Below are positions 19,907 through 55,691 of a stretch of 64,000 nt of DNA, piece after piece. Positions within the stretch are counted from its first letter, which is position 1. Each line of letters opens with the position of its first letter. The DNA is taken from assembly GCF_057098645.1 (NCBI RefSeq), contig NZ_CM169472.1; one strand, 5' to 3'. The notes beneath the pieces were generated by a model. The model did no database searches. It was not told the origin of the DNA and worked only from the letters and a program-made list of their open reading frames with translations. The position numbers were made by a program, and so were the translations under genes.

Positions 19907-20620
19907 TTATGCGCCAAACGCGCCATCAATGGTATGCATCGCGCCGGTAACAAAACTGGCTTCTGGCCCTGCTAACCATGCGACCATACCAGCGACCTCT
20001 TCCGGTTGCCCATGTCTTTTGATAGCCATAAAACTATGCAACATATCGCGCATTGGCCCGTTGGCGGGATTAGCGTCGGTATCAATTGGCCCTGGCTGGA
20101 CGACGTTGATGGTGATCCCACGCGGTCCGAAATCACGGGCCAGCCCGCGCGCCATGCCTTGCAGGGCAGATTTACTGGCGGCATAAGCAGCCATGCCTGC
20201 AACAGGCATACGATCGCCATTCACGGAGCCGATGATTAAGATGCGCCCGCCTTCGGGCATCTGCCGGGCGGCTTCAACAGAGGCATGGTAAGGAGCATGA
20301 ATATTGATTTTGAAAAGGCGATCAATATCGTCGGCATTTAATTCCAGGGCATCGCCAAAGACGCCAATACCTGCATTTACCACCAGGATATCCAATGCGC
20401 CGCTCTTACGAACGACATCAATGACAGCGTCTCTGTCAGCACTATCTGTGAATACTGCTGTCGCTCCCGTCTCTTGTGCCAGGCGTTCAGCGGCATCTTT
20501 CGACTCCGCATAGGTGAATCGTACATTGGCCCCATCGGTGACGAAACGACGTACGATAGCGGCACCGATTCCACGGCTACCACCGAGGATGAGAACTGTC
20601 TTACCTGTAAAAGCGCCCAT
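19907..20620 (-). CDS. bdcA: short-chain dehydrogenase/reductase, c-di-GMP binding biofilm dispersal mediator
   Basis: 237-aa SDR with TGxxxGxG (GGSRGIGAA) and YxxxK motifs. Confidence 0.85.
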   Translation of the reverse strand: MGAFTGKTVLILGGSRGIGAAIVRRFVTDGANVRFTYAESKDAAERLAQETGATAVFTDSADRDAVIDVVRKSGALDILVVNAGIGVFGDALELNADDIDRLFKINIHAPYHASVEAARQMPEGGRILIIGSVNGDRMPVAGMAAYAASKSALQGMARGLARDFGPRGITINVVQPGPIDTDANPANGPMRDMLHSFMAIKRHGQPEEVAGMVAWLAGPEASFVTGAMHTIDGAFGA

Positions 20621-20690
20621 AAGGACTCCTTGATTTATTATGTAACATGCATTACAAAACTGTTTTAACTTTCTGTCAACAAGTTTTGTA
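20621..20690. promoter_or_regulatory. divergent bdcA/bdcR promoter region with TTGTAA...TTACAA inverted repeats (candidate TetR-family operator)
   Basis: ttgtaacatgcattacaa and caacaagttttgtaatg palindromic elements between divergent genes. Confidence 0.35.
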
Positions 20691-21284
20691 ATGATCACTA
20701 AAAAACAATATCGCGTTCCAGGTCGTCCCAGACGTTTCGCTCCTGAGCAGGCAGTCTCTGCGGCAAAAGTGCTTTTTCACCAAAAAGGTTTCGATGCTGT
20801 CAGTGTTGCTGAAGTTACTGATTATCTTGGTATTAACCCCCCGAGCCTCTACGCGGCTTTTGGCAATAAGGCTGGGTTATTTAGCCGTGTACTCAATGAA
20901 TATGTCGGCACGGAAGCTATTCCGCTTGCCGATATTCTTCGTGATGATCGTCCGGTAGGGGAGTGCCTGGCTGAGGTATTAAAAGAAGCGGCGCGCAGAT
21001 ATAGCCAAAACGGCGGCTGCGCTGGCTGTATGGTTCTTGAAGGCATTCATAGTCATGATCCACAAGCGCGTGATATTGCCGTTCAATATTATCACGCCGC
21101 AGAAACGGCCATTTATGACTATATCGCCAGGCGGCATCCACAAAGCGCACAATGTGTGACTGATTTTATGAGTACCGTGATGTCAGGGCTTTCTGCGAAG
21201 GCACGGGAGGGGCACTCCATCGAACAACTCTGTGCAACAGCTGCACTGGCGGGGGAAGCGATAAAAACTATTCTCAAGGAGTGA
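20691..21284 (+). CDS. bdcR: TetR-family transcriptional regulator
   Basis: 197-aa ORF with N-terminal TetR HTH. Confidence 0.85.
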   Translation: MITKKQYRVPGRPRRFAPEQAVSAAKVLFHQKGFDAVSVAEVTDYLGINPPSLYAAFGNKAGLFSRVLNEYVGTEAIPLADILRDDRPVGECLAEVLKEAARRYSQNGGCAGCMVLEGIHSHDPQARDIAVQYYHAAETAIYDYIARRHPQSAQCVTDFMSTVMSGLSAKAREGHSIEQLCATAALAGEAIKTILKE

Positions 21285-21416
21285 TGCGGGCCTTGACCCG
21301 AAAGGCGGGAACGCGCCTGCCGATAAGTTGTGATAAGACAATAATTCACGCGTTAAGGCTAGCGGAATTGATCATCTTTTCGTATAACGATAGAAATGAA
21401 ACGTTGTTTTAATTAA

Positions 21417-21881
<465 letters not shown>

Positions 21882-22003
21882 TGACTTTTCGCCGTAAATA
21901 ACTCCAGGTTTACGGCGAGTTTGTGAAAAGAGCGTTTTTTGATATTTTTTTGTGAGTAAAATTTGTAATGCTTAGACGTTCTTATTAACTCAAGGAGTTC
22001 GTC

Positions 22004-37922: not shown

Positions 37923-38007
37923 GCCGAAGTGGCGAAATCGGTAGACGCAGTTGATTCAAAATCAACCGTAGAAATACGTGCCGGTTCGAGTCCGGCCTTC
38001 GGCACCA
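37923..38007 (+). tRNA. leuX: tRNA-Leu (anticodon CAA)
   Basis: 85-nt sequence GCCGAAGTGGCGAAATCGGTAGACGCAGTTGATTCAAAATCAACCGTAGAAATACGTGCCGGTTCGAGTCCGGCCTTCGGCACCA with long variable arm. Confidence 0.95.
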
Positions 38008-38171
38008 TTATTACTTCCAAGTCCATCCGAGTAAGTCCGATTATCCATTAAAAATCAATACTTTCAGCGATTTCTACGATCTTGGATCGTCCGAGGTTGT
38101 CCGTTGAAATCCGGATGTCATTGGGGGCATAATTGGGGGCATCTTAACTTCGATTAGAAATGTGCCCCCAA

Positions 38172-39446
38172 ATGAAGCTCAATGCTAGACAAGTCGAGAC
38201 AGCAAAGCCAAAAGACAAAAGCTACAAAATGGCCGATGGCGGCGGTTTGTATCTCGAGGTTTCGGCCAAGGGGTCTAAATACTGGCGCATGAAATACCGA
38301 CGCCCCTCTGACAAAAAAGAGGATCGCCTCGCTTTTGGTGTTTGGCCGACCGTGACGCTTGCTGAAGCTAGAACGAGGAGGGATGAAGCGAAAAAGTTGC
38401 TGGCGCAAGGTATAGATCCAAAAGCAGTACAGAAAGAGGCTCAAGCAGAGAATGCTGGTGCTTATAATTTTGAAACTATTGCTCGTGAATGGCACGCCAG
38501 CAACAAACGTTGGAGTGAGGATCATCGGGCGCGTGTTCTTCGCTATCTAGAGCTGTATATCTTTCCTTATATTGGCTTGTCTGATATCCGACAGCTTAAA
38601 ACTAGCCATCTTTTAGCACCGATAAAAAAAGTTGATGCCAGTGGTAAGCATGATGTGGCGCAGCGTCTTCAGCAACGTGTTACTGCTATTATGCGCTATG
38701 CCGTACAGAACGATTATATAGATTCAAATCCTGCAAGTGATATGGCTGGTGCGTTATCGACAGCTAAAACGCGGCACTATCCAGCTCTACCATCACATCG
38801 TTTTCCTGAGTTCTTAGCACGTCTTGCTGCATATCGTGGTCGTATGATGACGAAAATTGCGGTTGAACTTTCTTTATTAACATTTGTTCGTTCCAGTGAG
38901 CTACGTTTCGCTCGCTGGGATGAATTCGACTTCGATAAATCTCTATGGCGTATACCTGCAAAACGCGAGGAAATTAAAGGCGTACGTTACTCATATAGAG
39001 GAATGAAGATGAAGGAAGAGCATCTCGTTCCACTTAGTAGGCAAGCGATAGGGTTGTTGGAGCAGTTAAAGCAGATTAGTGGTGATAAGACGCTGCTTTT
39101 CCCTGGGGATCATGACGCAACTAAGGTTATGAGTGAGAACACTGTTAATAATGCATTGCGTGCGATGGGCTATGATACGAAAACAGAAGTTTGCGGACAT
39201 GGTTTTAGGACAATGGCACGTGGTGCGTTAGGAGAGTCAGGATTATGGAGTGATGATGCTATTGAACGCCAATTGAGCCATTCGGAACGTAATAATGTGC
39301 GAGCTGCGTATATTCATACGTCTGAGCATTTAGATGAGCGCAGACTAATGGTCCAATGGTGGGCAGATTATCTTTATTCCAACAGAGAGAAGCATATCTC
39401 TGCTTTTGAATTTGCAAATAAACTTAATAAAAATAGCCTTGATTAA
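38172..39446 (+). CDS. intB: P4-type tyrosine integrase
   Basis: N-terminus MKLNARQVETAKPKDKSYKMADGGGLYLEV... typical of P4-family integrases, directly downstream of tRNA-Leu. Confidence 0.9.
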   Translation: MKLNARQVETAKPKDKSYKMADGGGLYLEVSAKGSKYWRMKYRRPSDKKEDRLAFGVWPTVTLAEARTRRDEAKKLLAQGIDPKAVQKEAQAENAGAYNFETIAREWHASNKRWSEDHRARVLRYLELYIFPYIGLSDIRQLKTSHLLAPIKKVDASGKHDVAQRLQQRVTAIMRYAVQNDYIDSNPASDMAGALSTAKTRHYPALPSHRFPEFLARLAAYRGRMMTKIAVELSLLTFVRSSELRFARWDEFDFDKSLWRIPAKREEIKGVRYSYRGMKMKEEHLVPLSRQAIGLLEQLKQISGDKTLLFPGDHDATKVMSENTVNNALRAMGYDTKTEVCGHGFRTMARGALGESGLWSDDAIERQLSHSERNNVRAAYIHTSEHLDERRLMVQWWADYLYSNREKHISAFEFANKLNKNSLD

Positions 39447-49451: not shown

Positions 49452-51785
49452 ATGAAAATGAACGTAACCGCCACCGTCAGCCATGCGCTCGGCCACTGGC
49501 CGCGTATTCTCCCGGCGCTGGGGATTCAGGTGCTGAAAAACCGTCATCAGCCCTGTCCGGTCTGTGGCGGGAGTGACCGCTTCCGTTTTGATGACAGGGA
49601 GGGGCGCGGCACCTGGTACTGCAATCAGTGTGGTGCCGGTGACGGCCTGAAACTGGTTGAAAAGGTGTTTGGTGTCTCCCCGTCCGACGCGGCCGCAAAG
49701 GTGGCTGCCGTGACCGGCAGCCTGCCCCCGGCTGACCCGGCAGTGACGGCTGCCGCCGGTGCTGAAACAGACGCTGCCCGGAAGAACGCCGCCGCACTGG
49801 CACAAACCCTGATGGCGAAAACCCGTCCCGGAACCGGTAACGCCTACCTGACCCGCAAGGGCTTTCCCGGCCGGGAATGCCGGATGCTGACCGGCACACA
49901 CAGATCCGGTGGCGTGAGCTGGCGTGCCGGTGACCTTGTGGTGCCACTGTATGACGACAGCGGCGAACTGGTTAACCTTCAGTTAATCAGTGCTGACGGC
50001 CGTAAGCGCACCCTGAAAGGCGGACAGGTCAGGGGCACCTGTCACACCCTTGAAGGACAGAATCAGGCCGGAAAACGTCTGTGGATAGCGGAGGGATACG
50101 CGACCGCACTTACCGTACATCACCTGACCGGTGAAACGGTGATGGTGGCGCTTTCTTCCGTGAACCTCCTTTCTCTGGCCAGCCTTGCCCGGCAGAAGCA
50201 TCCGGCCTGTCAGATTGTCCTTGCCGCAGACCGTGACCTCAGCGGTGACGGCCAGAAAAAAGCCGCCGCAGCCGCAGATGCGTGTGAGGGCGTTGTTGCC
50301 CTGCCGCCGGTCTTCGGTGACTGGAATGATGCCTTCACGCAGTACGGCGGGGAGGCCACCCGTAAGGCCATTTACGATGCCATCCGGCCACCGGCTGAAA
50401 GCCCGTTCGACACCATGAGCGAAGCAGAGTTTTCCGCCATGAGTACCAGCGAAAAGGCCATGCGTATCTATGAGCATTACGGCGAGGCGCTCGCGGTTGA
50501 TGCCAACGGCCAGCTTCTGTCCCGTTATGAAAATGGTGTCTGGAAGGTGCTGCCGCCACAGGACTTTGCCCGGGATGTGGCCGGGCTGTTTCAGCGTCTG
50601 CGCGCGCCGTTCTCCTCCGGGAAGGTGGCCTCCGTGGTGGACACCCTGAAGCTGATTATTCCGCAGCAGGAAGCCCCCTCCCGCCGCCTGATTGGCTTTC
50701 GTAACGGCGTGCTCGACACGCAGAACGGCACGTTCCACCCGCACAGTCCGTCACACTGGATGCGCACCCTGTGCGATGTGGATTTCACCCCGCCGGTGGA
50801 CGGTGAAACGCTGGAGACCCACGCCCCCGCGTTCTGGCGCTGGCTTGACCGTGCCGCCGGTGGCCGTGCGGAAAAACGCGACGTGATTCTGGCCGCACTG
50901 TTTATGGTGCTGGCAAACCGCTATGACTGGCAGCTCTTTCTGGAGGTGACCGGTCCCGGCGGCAGCGGCAAAAGTATCATGGCCGAAATAGCCACCCTGC
51001 TGGCCGGTGAGGATAACGCCACGTCGGCCACTATTGAGACGCTGGAATCCCCGCGTGAACGTGCCGCGTTAACTGGCTTCTCACTGATACGCCTGCCGGA
51101 CCAGGAAAAATGGAGCGGCGACGGTGCCGGACTCAAGGCCATCACCGGCGGCGATGCGGTGTCCGTGGACCCGAAATACCGGGATGCGTACTCCACGCAT
51201 ATCCCGGCGGTGATTCTGGCCGTGAACAATAACCCGATGCGCTTCACCGACCGCAGCGGCGGCGTGTCACGCCGGCGGGTGATTATTCACTTCCCGGAAC
51301 AGATAGCCCCGCAGGAGCGCGACCCGCAACTTAAGGACAAAATCACCCGCGAGCTGGCGGTCATCGTGCGTCACCTGATGCAGAAGTTCAGCGACCCGAT
51401 GCTCGCCCGGTCACTGCTTCAGTCCCAGCAGAACTCAGACGAGGCACTGAACATCAAACGGGATGCCGACCCGACGTTTGATTTTATCGGCTATCTGGAA
51501 ACCCTGCCGCAGACCAGCGGCATGTATATGGGGAACGCCAGTATCATCCCGCGTAATTACCGTAAATACCTCTATCACGCCTATCTGGCCTACATGGAGG
51601 CAAACGGCTACCGGAATGTACTCAGTCTGAAAATGTTCGGGCTGGGGCTGCCGGTGATGCTGAAGGAATACGGGCTGAATTACGAGAAGCGCCATACCAA
51701 ACAGGGGATACAGACCAACCTGACGCTGAAAGAGGAAAGCTACGGCGACTGGCTGCCAAAATGTGACGACCCTGCAACAACCTGA
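49452..51785 (+). CDS. alpha: P4-like alpha primase-helicase
   Basis: 777-aa ORF with N-terminal zinc-binding primase motif (CPVCGG...CNQCG), Walker A GPGGSGKS, P4 position. Confidence 0.85.
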   Translation: MKMNVTATVSHALGHWPRILPALGIQVLKNRHQPCPVCGGSDRFRFDDREGRGTWYCNQCGAGDGLKLVEKVFGVSPSDAAAKVAAVTGSLPPADPAVTAAAGAETDAARKNAAALAQTLMAKTRPGTGNAYLTRKGFPGRECRMLTGTHRSGGVSWRAGDLVVPLYDDSGELVNLQLISADGRKRTLKGGQVRGTCHTLEGQNQAGKRLWIAEGYATALTVHHLTGETVMVALSSVNLLSLASLARQKHPACQIVLAADRDLSGDGQKKAAAAADACEGVVALPPVFGDWNDAFTQYGGEATRKAIYDAIRPPAESPFDTMSEAEFSAMSTSEKAMRIYEHYGEALAVDANGQLLSRYENGVWKVLPPQDFARDVAGLFQRLRAPFSSGKVASVVDTLKLIIPQQEAPSRRLIGFRNGVLDTQNGTFHPHSPSHWMRTLCDVDFTPPVDGETLETHAPAFWRWLDRAAGGRAEKRDVILAALFMVLANRYDWQLFLEVTGPGGSGKSIMAEIATLLAGEDNATSATIETLESPRERAALTGFSLIRLPDQEKWSGDGAGLKAITGGDAVSVDPKYRDAYSTHIPAVILAVNNNPMRFTDRSGGVSRRRVIIHFPEQIAPQERDPQLKDKITRELAVIVRHLMQKFSDPMLARSLLQSQQNSDEALNIKRDADPTFDFIGYLETLPQTSGMYMGNASIIPRNYRKYLYHAYLAYMEANGYRNVLSLKMFGLGLPVMLKEYGLNYEKRHTKQGIQTNLTLKEESYGDWLPKCDDPATT

Positions 51786-52320: not shown

Positions 52321-52344
52321 GTTTGAGTCCGGCCTTCGCACCAC
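52321..52344 (+). repeat. degenerate direct repeat of the tRNA-Leu 3' end (attR-like island boundary)
   Basis: gtttgagtccggccttcgcaccac versus tRNA 3' end gttcgagtccggccttcggcacca. Confidence 0.55.
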
Positions 52345-53020
52345 ACCGTATGCAAATCGAGTCGCTCAAGGGCGGCTTTTTTTGTGTCTGAAATCACCCA
52401 TATCCGTGCAGTATATAGGCCTGCCAGAAAAGCAGTTCAGTATTCTTCATTTTGTAGTCGATGGTCCCAAGTTTGCTCTGGCTGGAAGCTGCATCGTCCA
52501 CATTACGTGGGCAGGGTGGTTTCGCTATGCTACTTGAACGTTTTGACCATGTGGCTCAGGTAGCTAATATCAAAAGACGTCATTTTGTCTCCACGCCCAC
52601 CTTGGTGAACATTCAATAAATAGTTTCGGTCGAGAGCAGTTATGTAGGGCTAGCAGACGAGATGCGCAGACATCTTGTTGAAGACAATTATACTGACCAC
52701 CTGAGAACGCTATTCTACCGAATAATATTTATTATCTTGGCGAATAATGATGATTACCTGTGTAACTATGGTTTTATGCTGATGGGACCGGCAGTACAAT
52801 TTCTGTAGTGTACTCGCAATTTCAGATCTCTGGCGTTTATTCTGGTGCAAAGGAGGTATGTGATGAAAACTTTGCTACCATGCCATTAAATGCGACCAAT
52901 ATCGGATTATCCATCAGTTGCTTGTCGTAGATTTCATTGGTTATAAAAATGCAAGGTGTAAAAGATGAAATTTATAATTATTAGTTAAGTGGCTAGTTTT
53001 ATAGTAATTTAGACAATAGG

Positions 53021-55069
53021 ATGTATGGAAAAATGGAAAAAGTTTATGATACCACTAGAATTAGTAATCTTGCTAACGACCCGAAACAGTTTTGTTCTTT
53101 TTTTTGTGAGTACATAAAAAGAGATGATATTAGTATAGATATCGCCTTGGATGTGCTGAGAATATCTTCCATCTATTATAATAGATTTTCAGTTCAGACT
53201 GAAGTTGAGTATAACAATACATTCAAAAAATGTATTAATGAGCTAGTAAACTCATTTCCTGATAACATTGAACTAATTTCTGAGTTCGAGAGTCAATGTA
53301 AAATTATGCATGATATAAATAATTCTTTCTTTGCGGCTACAAAATGTGCTGGTATTTGGCGTGAAAATACAAAAAAATCACATGCATTAATACTTAATCT
53401 CATCATGTTTTGTGAGATGTTTTTATCATCATTATCATCCTTGGTTGTGGTCAATGATCCTAAAAAAATGAAGAGGATTTTTCCATTATTTATCGTTTCT
53501 GAAAATATTAATATTCATGCTGAACCTGATATCGAATATTTTCGAGTTATCGATAGGGCATTTGATGAGGTAGCCAATTACACCGGAAGAATATTTTCTT
53601 ATTTACGGACTCATGAGCCATTGAAACTAACTTCTTGTGTGAATAAACAAACCTTGCTTTCAATGGGAGGGTACCTTAATGAGTGGAATGTTTTTGACTC
53701 ATTAAGCAGAGTAAGAGACTTTTTCAGACTAAGTAGTGCAGTATTTACAAAATTGGATAATAACATTTACTCTCTTGAGGTTGATAGTTTTTGTTTATAC
53801 CGAGATTATGAGATTGCAAGAAATAGACTAATGATGAGAGCGTCACATCTATATAGCGAAGTTCATGAATTTAGTAACAAACATTTTCATCTAAATAGTT
53901 GGGTAAAGGATCATATGCCATCTTACTTAAATTCTGATGGCGTTTTTAGCTCATTTCATCTAAGCGAGTTGGAAAATATGTCTCCTGATGACCTTCATGA
54001 AGAATATGGGAATATATCATTATTTAATTGGGTGCACGCTTATCAATGTTTAGTCGAGTTATCTAAAGAAGAAATGAGCAAAAGATTTTCATCGACAAAA
54101 CCTATACCCCTACAGTTGGATCGCTGGCTGATCATAAAAAGCCGTGAGAGTTGGTTATCATTCTTTCAACGTAAGGGGATTGCAGCAGATGCAGCAAAAA
54201 AACTGATAGATTATTTTACCTTCAATTCAAAATCACATGATCTTAATGATTGCCCATTTATTCCCTGTATGGACGGTTTATGCTTAATGCCTGCATTCAT
54301 AGCAAATAGCTCAGTGACTCGCTCTCTAATGTCATTATTTGGTTCCAAAAAAATTTCTCAAGCAAGTAAAGGGCGATTTCATGAGCAACAATTTATAAAA
54401 CAAGTTCGTGATGCGGGGATTAAAGCTTCTCCAATTGATGCTCATGCTAATTATCAGTGCGATTGCGTGATTCTCCTGGATGATTGTTTGATTTTTACAG
54501 AACTAAAATCAAATGGTCAACCAATATATTATGGTAAGTACTATCAGCAAGTGTGTAACATCGTTGGAGATAGCTCATTAATACATGATCATAATAATAA
54601 ATTTATGCGTTCTTATTTTCAACAAATAAATCGAACTTCTGAACATTATCTTAATCATCTTGATGTGATCATTAAAGAATTCGAACTACCATCAACATGG
54701 CAACCCAAAGGTGTGTATAAGCTTATTGTTACTACAACTATGCTCGGTGGGAAATATCATGTGGATGATACATATGTAGCGGACAAATATGCATTATCTA
54801 GTTTTTTTCAACGAATACCTGGAGTGATATATCAAACAAATGAAAATGGAGAAATGGCGAAAAATATCATTGATGGGTTTGAGTGTTGCGAAGGGGAAAT
54901 CACTATCGATAAGTTTATAGATTATCTTTCCTCTTTGCCCGGTATTAATGCTGTACGTAAAAATATACAAAAATTAACTTATAGTGTTCGATTTAATGAA
55001 AAACTAGTCCATCACCCTTATTATGATTCTTGGGCTTTTGGCCCATATATTCGTAAGGGAAATGATTAG
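53021..55069 (+). CDS. large AT-rich hypothetical protein, no recognisable motif
   Basis: 682-codon uninterrupted ORF in an island of low GC; standalone gene flanked by long noncoding regions. Confidence 0.55.
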   Translation: MYGKMEKVYDTTRISNLANDPKQFCSFFCEYIKRDDISIDIALDVLRISSIYYNRFSVQTEVEYNNTFKKCINELVNSFPDNIELISEFESQCKIMHDINNSFFAATKCAGIWRENTKKSHALILNLIMFCEMFLSSLSSLVVVNDPKKMKRIFPLFIVSENINIHAEPDIEYFRVIDRAFDEVANYTGRIFSYLRTHEPLKLTSCVNKQTLLSMGGYLNEWNVFDSLSRVRDFFRLSSAVFTKLDNNIYSLEVDSFCLYRDYEIARNRLMMRASHLYSEVHEFSNKHFHLNSWVKDHMPSYLNSDGVFSSFHLSELENMSPDDLHEEYGNISLFNWVHAYQCLVELSKEEMSKRFSSTKPIPLQLDRWLIIKSRESWLSFFQRKGIAADAAKKLIDYFTFNSKSHDLNDCPFIPCMDGLCLMPAFIANSSVTRSLMSLFGSKKISQASKGRFHEQQFIKQVRDAGIKASPIDAHANYQCDCVILLDDCLIFTELKSNGQPIYYGKYYQQVCNIVGDSSLIHDHNNKFMRSYFQQINRTSEHYLNHLDVIIKEFELPSTWQPKGVYKLIVTTTMLGGKYHVDDTYVADKYALSSFFQRIPGVIYQTNENGEMAKNIIDGFECCEGEITIDKFIDYLSSLPGINAVRKNIQKLTYSVRFNEKLVHHPYYDSWAFGPYIRKGND

Positions 55070-55092
55070 AGCAATTTATTATATAGTCCATG

Positions 55093-55134
55093 TTATTCAC
55101 TGATTATATTATTGATAATATAATCAGTGAATAA
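55093..55134. promoter_or_regulatory. 42-bp perfect inverted repeat (20-bp arms, 2-nt centre)
   Basis: ttattcactgattatattat tg ataatataatcagtgaataa, 24 bp downstream of the 682-aa ORF stop. Confidence 0.4.
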
Positions 55135-55467
55135 CTCTAATTTTTTTAATGTTGGGGGGTAGCCTGAAATTGAAATTGGTACTACGGAACGGTATGATCA
55201 TATCGCATCAAAATATCAAGGTAGTGATGATTTTCTACGCAACGATCCAGAAACGTGGATTTTATCATCACCATAAGCAATGGCAGCGACAACACCATCA
55301 ATTTCTATATCAAAGGTGGTGAAATGAATTAGAAAATTGTTTATTTAATCCATTAGCGATAAGTTTTATTGTTATTTAGCCGAGATATATTCCATTGAAA
55401 AAAGTAAATTGGCACTGATATTATATCAAATGGGAATAATCCTTTTGTAAATAAGCTGAGGAATGTG

Positions 55468-55650
55468 TTAATTCACATCCAGCGCCTTATAAACCGCATC
55501 AACCGGTTCTGAGTAAAAACTTACCTGAAACTTGGTAAACAACTCTGCCGGAACTGTTGGAATATCCATAGCCGAGGATATCGGCAACAGAACACGTTTT
55601 GCGCCGCTATCGAAGGCGAGTTGTAAACTAGCGGCAAGATCCTGCACTGA
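55468..55650 (-). pseudogene. C-terminal remnant of a Lon-like (S16) protease gene
   Basis: 60-codon open frame without start: ...AKRVLLPISSAMDIPTVPAELFTKFQVSFYSEPVDAVYKALDVN resembles the Lon protease domain C-terminus; truncated at the 5' side. Confidence 0.3.
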
Positions 55651-55691
55651 TTATGTCAGCAATATTGAACATACTGCGATAGTTATCAACC

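Follow-up and report, generated by a model that had tools for sequence, protein, structure and literature searches.

The region between an uncharacterised 682-aa open reading frame (ORF; 53021-55069, plus strand) and a convergent HNH restriction endonuclease gene on the minus strand is, taken as a whole, very probably best explained as a non-functional deletion scar of a BREX cassette in the leuX defence island of E. coli. It covers positions 55070-55691 of the window, the 64,000-nucleotide stretch of DNA that was analysed. As had been predicted, the ORF list contained only short frames between the 682-aa ORF and the 342-aa HNH ORF (55692-56720, minus strand). The island is marked by the tRNA-Leu(CAA) gene at 37923-38007 and represents hotspot #37, the most occupied defence hotspot of E. 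coli, in which BREX is found in 9% of cases (PMC12707154). The StySA BREX system of Salmonella also sits at leuX (PMC9009780). Identity to E. coli O145:H28 strain RM9872 is 99.9-100% over the window except for a 14.3-kb P4-like island that is inserted at leuX relative to that strain. This P4-like island runs from 38008 to about 52320 and contains an integrase gene (38160-39446) and a primase-like 777-aa ORF (49452-51785). Next to it, at about 52321-52344, the 3' end of the tRNA is repeated in an imperfect copy.

The minus-strand frame at 55468-55647 reads VQDLAASLQLAFDSGAKRVLLPISSAMDIPTVPAELFTKFQVSFYSEPVDAVYKALDVN followed by its stop codon, and an in-frame TAA precedes it at 55648-55650. It matched the BrxL-specific NCBIfam model TIGR02653 at model positions 617-675 of 675 (E 3.8e-24) and the PADLOC BrxL model (E 1.7e-19). 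Alignment with intact E. coli BrxL by tblastn gave 56 identical residues out of 59 (95%; E 1e-33), and at the DNA level 170 of 180 nt (94%) were identical to intact brxL. The brxL gene of strain RSHH22 was 94% identical to the relic. The match to the generic Pfam family Lon_C (PF05362, positions 159-200 of 205) was not significant (E 0.28; 11.1 bits against a threshold of 21.1), so the identification rests on the BrxL-specific profiles. These results bear out the original prediction of a Lon-like C-terminal peptide without a start, for which a tblastn comparison with Lon and BrxL proteins had been proposed. A full BrxL protein has about 675-695 aa, with an N-terminal ATPase part and a Lon-like C-terminal domain. 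Here only 59 plus about 11 codons of brxL are left, with an in-frame TAA and no start; the GPS(T)A segment and the ATPase part are gone, and the score of 85 bits is far under the TIGR02653 cut-off of 628. Judged from these matches, the frame is a relic of a BrxL family member and not a member itself. The apparent GTG start of the frame (55645-55647) is an internal Val codon of BrxL with no Shine-Dalgarno sequence ahead of it. RefSeq annotates the relic as a partial pseudogene, named 'hypothetical protein' and in some genomes 'peptidase', an entry that could be changed to brxL fragment.

We searched 5,426 complete E. coli genomes with positions 55070-55700 as the query. The whole stretch was recovered in 339 of them. 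In a second class of matches, 55185-55647 aligned at about 85% to a 'phospholipase D-like protein' (PLD-like) gene and brxL. Strain STEC17-190 (locus L002) carries, all on the minus strand, the PLD-like gene, brxL, pglZ, pglX, brxC, brxB and brxA, the PLD-like gene lying directly downstream of brxL. Beyond brxA, a plus-strand NucS_C-like gene encoding 332 aa is followed by the restriction enzyme gene that the window also has, and by nanM and nanC. Strain RSHH22 (L003) has leuX, the same BREX operon, the NucS_C-like gene, the phosphorothioate (PT) restriction enzyme gene, nanM and nanC. No other BREX gene adjoins the relic in the window; in both strains the operon occupies the orthologous position. 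As an intact brxL and a whole BREX-1 operon stand at exactly this position in related islands, the window has kept both outer ends of a BREX cassette that was lost. The original prediction thus passed on the two points where it could have failed: the remnant is similar to the Lon family, and the intact gene at its position in related islands is brxL and not an unrelated one. The left part of the ancestral island would have consisted of leuX, an integrase gene, AbiE, the PLD-like gene and brxL-pglZ-pglX-brxC-brxB-brxA, with the genes from PLD-like to brxA on the minus strand. In its right part, brxA would have been followed by the NucS_C-like gene, the PT-dependent HNH restriction enzyme gene and then nanS-nanM-nanC. 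Table 1 lists the features of the region.

Table 1. Coordinates of features in and around the BREX deletion scar (window positions).
Feature	Position	Strand	Basis
AT-rich module, 30-35% GC, with the uncharacterised 682-aa ORF (53021-55069)	52396..55184	+	No blastn homology to L002-L005; GC profile
Inverted repeat, 21-nt arms 55092-55112 and 55115-55135 around a TG centre	55092..55135	+	Arms 100% complementary
T7 run (U-tract) 3' of the hairpin	55141..55147	+	Sequence; no comparable T run on the minus-strand side
PLD-like (DrmC/ZacB-like) relic, first 62 codons	55185..55369	-	162 matches in a 187-column alignment (3 gaps) to L002; alignment A1
PLD-brxL intergenic spacer relic	55370..55467	.	98 nt vs 118 nt in L002 (20 nt short); 82 matches in 118 columns, 20 gaps; alignment A1
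brxL 3' relic, last 59 codons and native TAA stop	55468..55647	-	TIGR02653, PADLOC BrxL, nucleotide and protein identity
Second brxL piece, about 11 codons	55648..55681	-	blastn-short match to L002 20534-20567; 28/34 nt identical
GCGATA, 6-bp microhomology at the junction of the ~14.5-kb deletion	55676..55681	.	Alignment A5, row L012; L002 sequence
Native 9-nt 3' flank of the restriction enzyme gene	55683..55691	-	Common to islands with BREX, Wadjet or McrBC in the neighbouring slot; alignments A2, A5
Phosphorothioated-DNA-binding HNH restriction endonuclease	55692..56564 (RefSeq start; mechanical ORF to 56720)	-	NF045808, E 1.5e-131; annotation

Next to the scar on its right, the restriction endonuclease gene is the conserved neighbour of a variable slot, and its 3' end was found in 1,786 of the 5,426 genomes. 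In these 1,786 genomes the gene forms a fixed right-hand border of the slot. The two HNH ORFs of the window had been described as a pair. They matched different families, NF045808 for the first and NF041791 for the second (57104-58207; E 7e-210), and therefore belong to different systems: the first is a PT-DNA restriction endonuclease and the second is ZorE of a type II Zorya system. The latter system (zorE, zorB2, zorA2) occupies 57104-60634 and beyond. Downstream of it, according to the RM9872 annotation, lie a STY4851/ECs_5259-family gene and then a large DEAD/DEAH helicase gene, indicating that several defence systems are stacked in the island. A second scar was seen at 56637-56914, where fragments of nanM (N-acetylneuraminate epimerase) lie between the restriction enzyme and Zorya II genes; an HNH gene, nanS and most of nanM of related islands are absent there.

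Continuous homology to brxL ends at 55647; that to the restriction enzyme 3' flank begins at 55683, 9 nt past the TGA stop of the enzyme gene. The 35 nt between these two points match brxL sequence from 57 nt further upstream and are not filler; the relic therefore has an in-frame deletion of 19 codons together with a TAA stop. The 34 nt of the second piece are TGATTATGTCAGCAATATTGAACATACTGCGATA, and the encoded peptide is IAVCSILLT*S, compared with IALCSILLAKP in intact BrxL, with the TAA at 55648-55650 in frame. The two pieces are joined by the 57-nt (19-codon) deletion between 8-bp direct repeats, TCCTG(C/T)AC, and this loss inside the relic is a slippage deletion between the repeats. Identity to intact alleles is 82% in the second piece, compared with 94% in the 180 nt next to it. 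Of six substitutions in the second piece, three raise its likeness to an arm of the palindrome described below (CACTGATTATGT vs CACTGATTATAT). Both the divergence and the likeness are probably due to chance or to a divergent source allele. The repeat shared by the palindrome and the brxL break (CACTGATTATAT and, at 55645, CACTGATTATGT) was considered as a recombination signature and rejected: the second copy is derived from brxL, and a match of 11/12 within 900 bp is about what chance would give.

At the outer end of the second piece, brxL is joined to the flank of the restriction enzyme gene at GCGATA. The junction partners, broken at the slash, are AAAGCGATA/AGCG for brxL and GACGCGATA/GTTATCAACC for the restriction enzyme flank, the flank allele with GCGATA being that seen in strain GN03551 (L012). 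Relative to L002, the deleted span is 20576-35111, or 14,536 bp. The DNA lost comprises about 1.8 kb of brxL (its first ~600 codons), five other BREX genes and the NucS_C-like gene. As traced by sequence comparison, a single illegitimate recombination across GCGATA removed these ~14.5 kb. It fused the last ~70 brxL codons to a point 9-16 nt downstream of the stop codon of the restriction enzyme gene.

The left side of the scar holds a further relic. One remnant had been predicted, and the brxL relic is that remnant; a second one exists, in which the 5' end of the PLD-like gene has decayed. Here the start codon has changed from ATG to ATA (55367-55369), the coding sequence is distributed over three frames, and 55185 marks the point of truncation. 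A tblastn search recovered it as three frame pieces with a combined E of 2e-17. In the intact homologue, PF13091 covers residues 71-142; the relic is frameshifted and ends at codon 62, and the PLD (HKD) domain is not kept. This unannotated fragment could be added to the annotation. A plus-strand 57-aa ORF at 55149-55322 was rejected as a gene: it is antisense to the PLD-like relic, occurs in no annotation record and varies among strains. The 2.8-kb AT-rich module stands in place of the whole stretch that began right behind leuX and extended to codon 62 of the PLD-like gene, including the integrase gene, AbiE and most of the PLD-like gene. Of the 5,426 E. coli genomes, 340 have the module, in each case in the context described, with the 682-aa gene directly following leuX. 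Its 682-aa protein gave nothing significant against PDB sequences, Pfam, NCBIfam and PADLOC, the last yielding only a weak match (PDC-M29B, E 0.0011). Homologues of the gene were seen in Enterobacterales only, at 75% in Salmonella, about 50% in Izhakiella, Xenorhabdus and Pectobacterium, and 40% in Pantoea; one of them adjoins a P4-type integrase. An invariant C-D-C...D...E-L-K block at residues 480-496 resembles the motif of PD-(D/E)xK nucleases; one homologue bears the UniRef name 'NERD domain'. On its sequence, the protein is a candidate single-gene defence nuclease.

A perfect 42-bp palindrome had been predicted at 55093-55134. The inverted repeat is real and its arms are fully complementary. 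Its centre is a non-palindromic TG dinucleotide, which makes it near-perfect only. The arm sequence occurs here alone in the window (0.02 matches expected by chance). The repeat forms a 20-bp AT-rich hairpin, 23 nt past the stop codon of the 682-aa gene. By itself the hairpin folds at -23.2 kcal/mol, and a 101-nt context gave z = -4.5 against shuffled sequences. Flanking GATTAGA (55064-55070, overlapping the TAG stop) and TCTAATT (55136-55142) can lengthen the stem, and the U tract (U5-7) then directly abuts the pairing. In a simple scan the element was terminator-like on the plus strand only; the same kind of scan found no terminator for the restriction enzyme gene in intact islands. Among 339 genomes, the palindrome occurred at one locus per genome and exclusively with the 682-aa gene (the two matches per genome are its two strands). 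With a single locus per genome and an arm unique in the window, it does not behave as a dispersed repeat of the REP, ERIC or MITE type. Other strains carry variants in which 5 nt of the loop are duplicated or an A>G change is compatible with a G.U pair. The palindrome had also been placed at the junction. Of the two homology breakpoints, the nearer (55184/55185) is 50 nt away and the farther 540 nt, so that the palindrome sits 50 nt inside the 682-aa module.

As it is found at one locus per genome, always with the 682-aa gene and 50 nt from the junction, the palindrome is most likely the terminator of that gene: together with the T run it forms a putative intrinsic terminator that came with the 682-aa gene. 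The terminator would end the 682-aa transcript before the convergently transcribed restriction enzyme gene. Some of its properties are atypical of a strong intrinsic terminator, as the stem is AT-rich, with 4 G-C pairs out of 20, and the T run begins 5 nt past the core hairpin. No equivalent hairpin was found after the stop codon of distant 682-aa homologues in Pectobacterium, Izhakiella and a metagenome contig, so the terminator is without covariation or other comparative support; the Salmonella contig carrying a homologue ends inside the gene. An Rfam scan of 54800-55900 gave no family at threshold, and its sub-threshold matches were to miRNA precursors only and were caused by the hairpin.

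Two other accounts of the region were weighed against deletion and termination. In the original prediction, brxL was truncated as the HNH module or other adjacent modules inserted into it or replaced it. The left side does fit replacement, as BREX islands lack the 682-aa module, which truncates the PLD-like gene at codon 62. On the HNH side, however, the restriction enzyme gene is ancestral: it is already present in intact islands, in the same orientation and with the same 3' flank, one gene beyond brxA. No new DNA lies at the brxL junction either, where ancestral sequences are joined directly at the 6-bp microhomology. Alignments A2 and A5 thus contradict insertion or replacement at the right-hand junction, and as an account of the truncation we regard it as improbable. 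The palindrome had been proposed to be either a terminator or a site for recombination or binding. A protein-binding or recombination site, serving in cassette exchange or integration or as an operator, would suit perfect 21-nt arms that are AT-rich and longer than termination needs, promoter-like hexamers that overlap the palindrome on both strands, and a region of repeated cassette turnover. Against this stand its distance from both homology breakpoints, its confinement to a single locus per genome solely with the 682-aa gene, and a T run present only on the side expected for the 682-aa transcript. Furthermore, the loop duplication and the G.U-compatible change preserve an RNA hairpin, and the partial copy at 55645-55664 (11/12 nt) is brxL-derived and at chance level. 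A role as such a site is unlikely, and termination, with the T7 run on the sense side after the stop codon, is the favoured part of the original proposal.

We also considered whether the scar has a function. The 59-codon frame might be a small gene, encoding a mini-protein with the C-terminus of a Lon-like protein that is kept by selection. It is open from GTG in the window, some RefSeq records call it a peptidase, and the scar is found in 6.6% of complete genomes at 97.6-100% identity. Over-expression of an engineered brxL 3' remnant of Salmonella had global effects (PMC9009780), that remnant being much longer, at roughly 700-800 nt. By contrast, no ribosome-binding site accompanies the GTG, which in BrxL is an internal Val codon; the GPS(T)A segment and the entire ATPase part are missing from the 59 residues that are left, and the profile score is far under the family cut-off. 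GAA>TAA nonsense alleles were found in loci L004 and L008, that is, in 2 of 4 other scar alleles examined, indicating that the relic is decaying. Over the four alleles, the codon changes comprised 5 nonsynonymous, 2 nonsense and 6 synonymous ones, a pattern that looks unconstrained; two intact brxL alleles differed by 5 synonymous and 0 nonsynonymous changes. A selected mini-gene is highly improbable in our estimate. From this small sample of alleles, we infer that the relics of the scar are drifting and yield no protein products. The scar could also be useful as DNA, with the brxL and PLD-like relics and the point past the stop codon of the restriction enzyme gene acting as homology anchors for the swapping or renewed acquisition of defence cassettes; in a variant of this idea, the palindrome would be bound by the nuclease-like 682-aa protein. 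The occurrence of the same junction with two left flanks, and of unrelated BREX, Wadjet and McrBC cassettes whose ends fall within about 15 nt of one position, is compatible with homology anchors. Such a use is nevertheless very unlikely, and a non-functional deletion scar is the reading that we keep.

The junction between brxL and the restriction enzyme flank (query 55600-55760) was found in 360 of the 5,426 complete E. coli genomes, and the whole scar with the 682-aa module in 339-340. In about 21 genomes, such as ECJXMCRH7 (L004), the junction is present with a different left flank of the RSHH22 type. As the scar occurs with two left flanks, a history with a single origin needs later recombination. 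We infer that the deletion occurred once and later spread or recombined among lineages. In loci L012-L015, unrelated BREX, Wadjet (with a NucS_C-like gene) and McrBC cassettes, the last in two orientations, were seen to end within about 15 nt of the stop codon of the restriction enzyme gene. Other, independent states of BREX inactivation occur at the slot. RSHH22 has an internal stop in pglZ (L003 22097-24694), and LR-25 (L005 8274-8971) has lost the whole BREX operon by an IS1-associated deletion, with the PLD-like and NucS_C-like genes kept.

This defence hotspot is well known, and the pseudogene scar in it is ordinary and not novel; on its own it matters little. Its value lies in being a clean, datable example of the loss of a defence system from a hotspot, mediated by microhomology with no IS element and with both cassette ends fossilised. 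The junction sequence is usable as a marker for BREX loss and for cassette turnover at leuX. Among complete E. coli genomes the fossil is found in 360, whereas close relatives of the intact gene are less common, with about 180 records at 80-95% identity.

The features of the region can be set against known systems. Compared with BrxL of type 1 BREX (leuX-island alleles WP_001462982.1 and WP_001193073.1), the relic shares 95% of the protein and 94% of the DNA over the last 59 codons, as well as the orthologous chromosomal position, the strand and the stop codon. It differs in keeping about 10% of the gene, with a 19-codon internal deletion, an in-frame stop and no start. The engineered brxL 3' remnant of the Salmonella StySA BREX system (PMC9009780) is likewise a C-terminal brxL fragment in the leuX island. 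That remnant has roughly 700-800 nt, the whole Lon-like domain and a strong cassette promoter, whereas the relic described here is limited to 59 codons and lacks expression signals. The putative terminator resembles intrinsic terminators in having a stable hairpin soon after the stop codon and a T run on the sense side only; its stem is unusually long (20-21 bp) and AT-rich, and the T run stays 5 nt off the core unless the flanking 7-bp stem forms. In contrast to the BREX losses of LR-25 and RSHH22, the present loss is IS-independent and microhomology-mediated, took the NucS_C-like gene too and is common to 360 genomes. Finally, the island has the same tRNA-Leu CAA anchor as hotspot #37 (PMC12707154) and, across alternative genomes, the same contents, namely a P4-type integrase island, BREX, a phosphorothioate-related restriction enzyme, McrBC, Wadjet and Zorya. 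The window differs in presenting an emptied BREX slot in which relics of both flanking cassette ends are kept.
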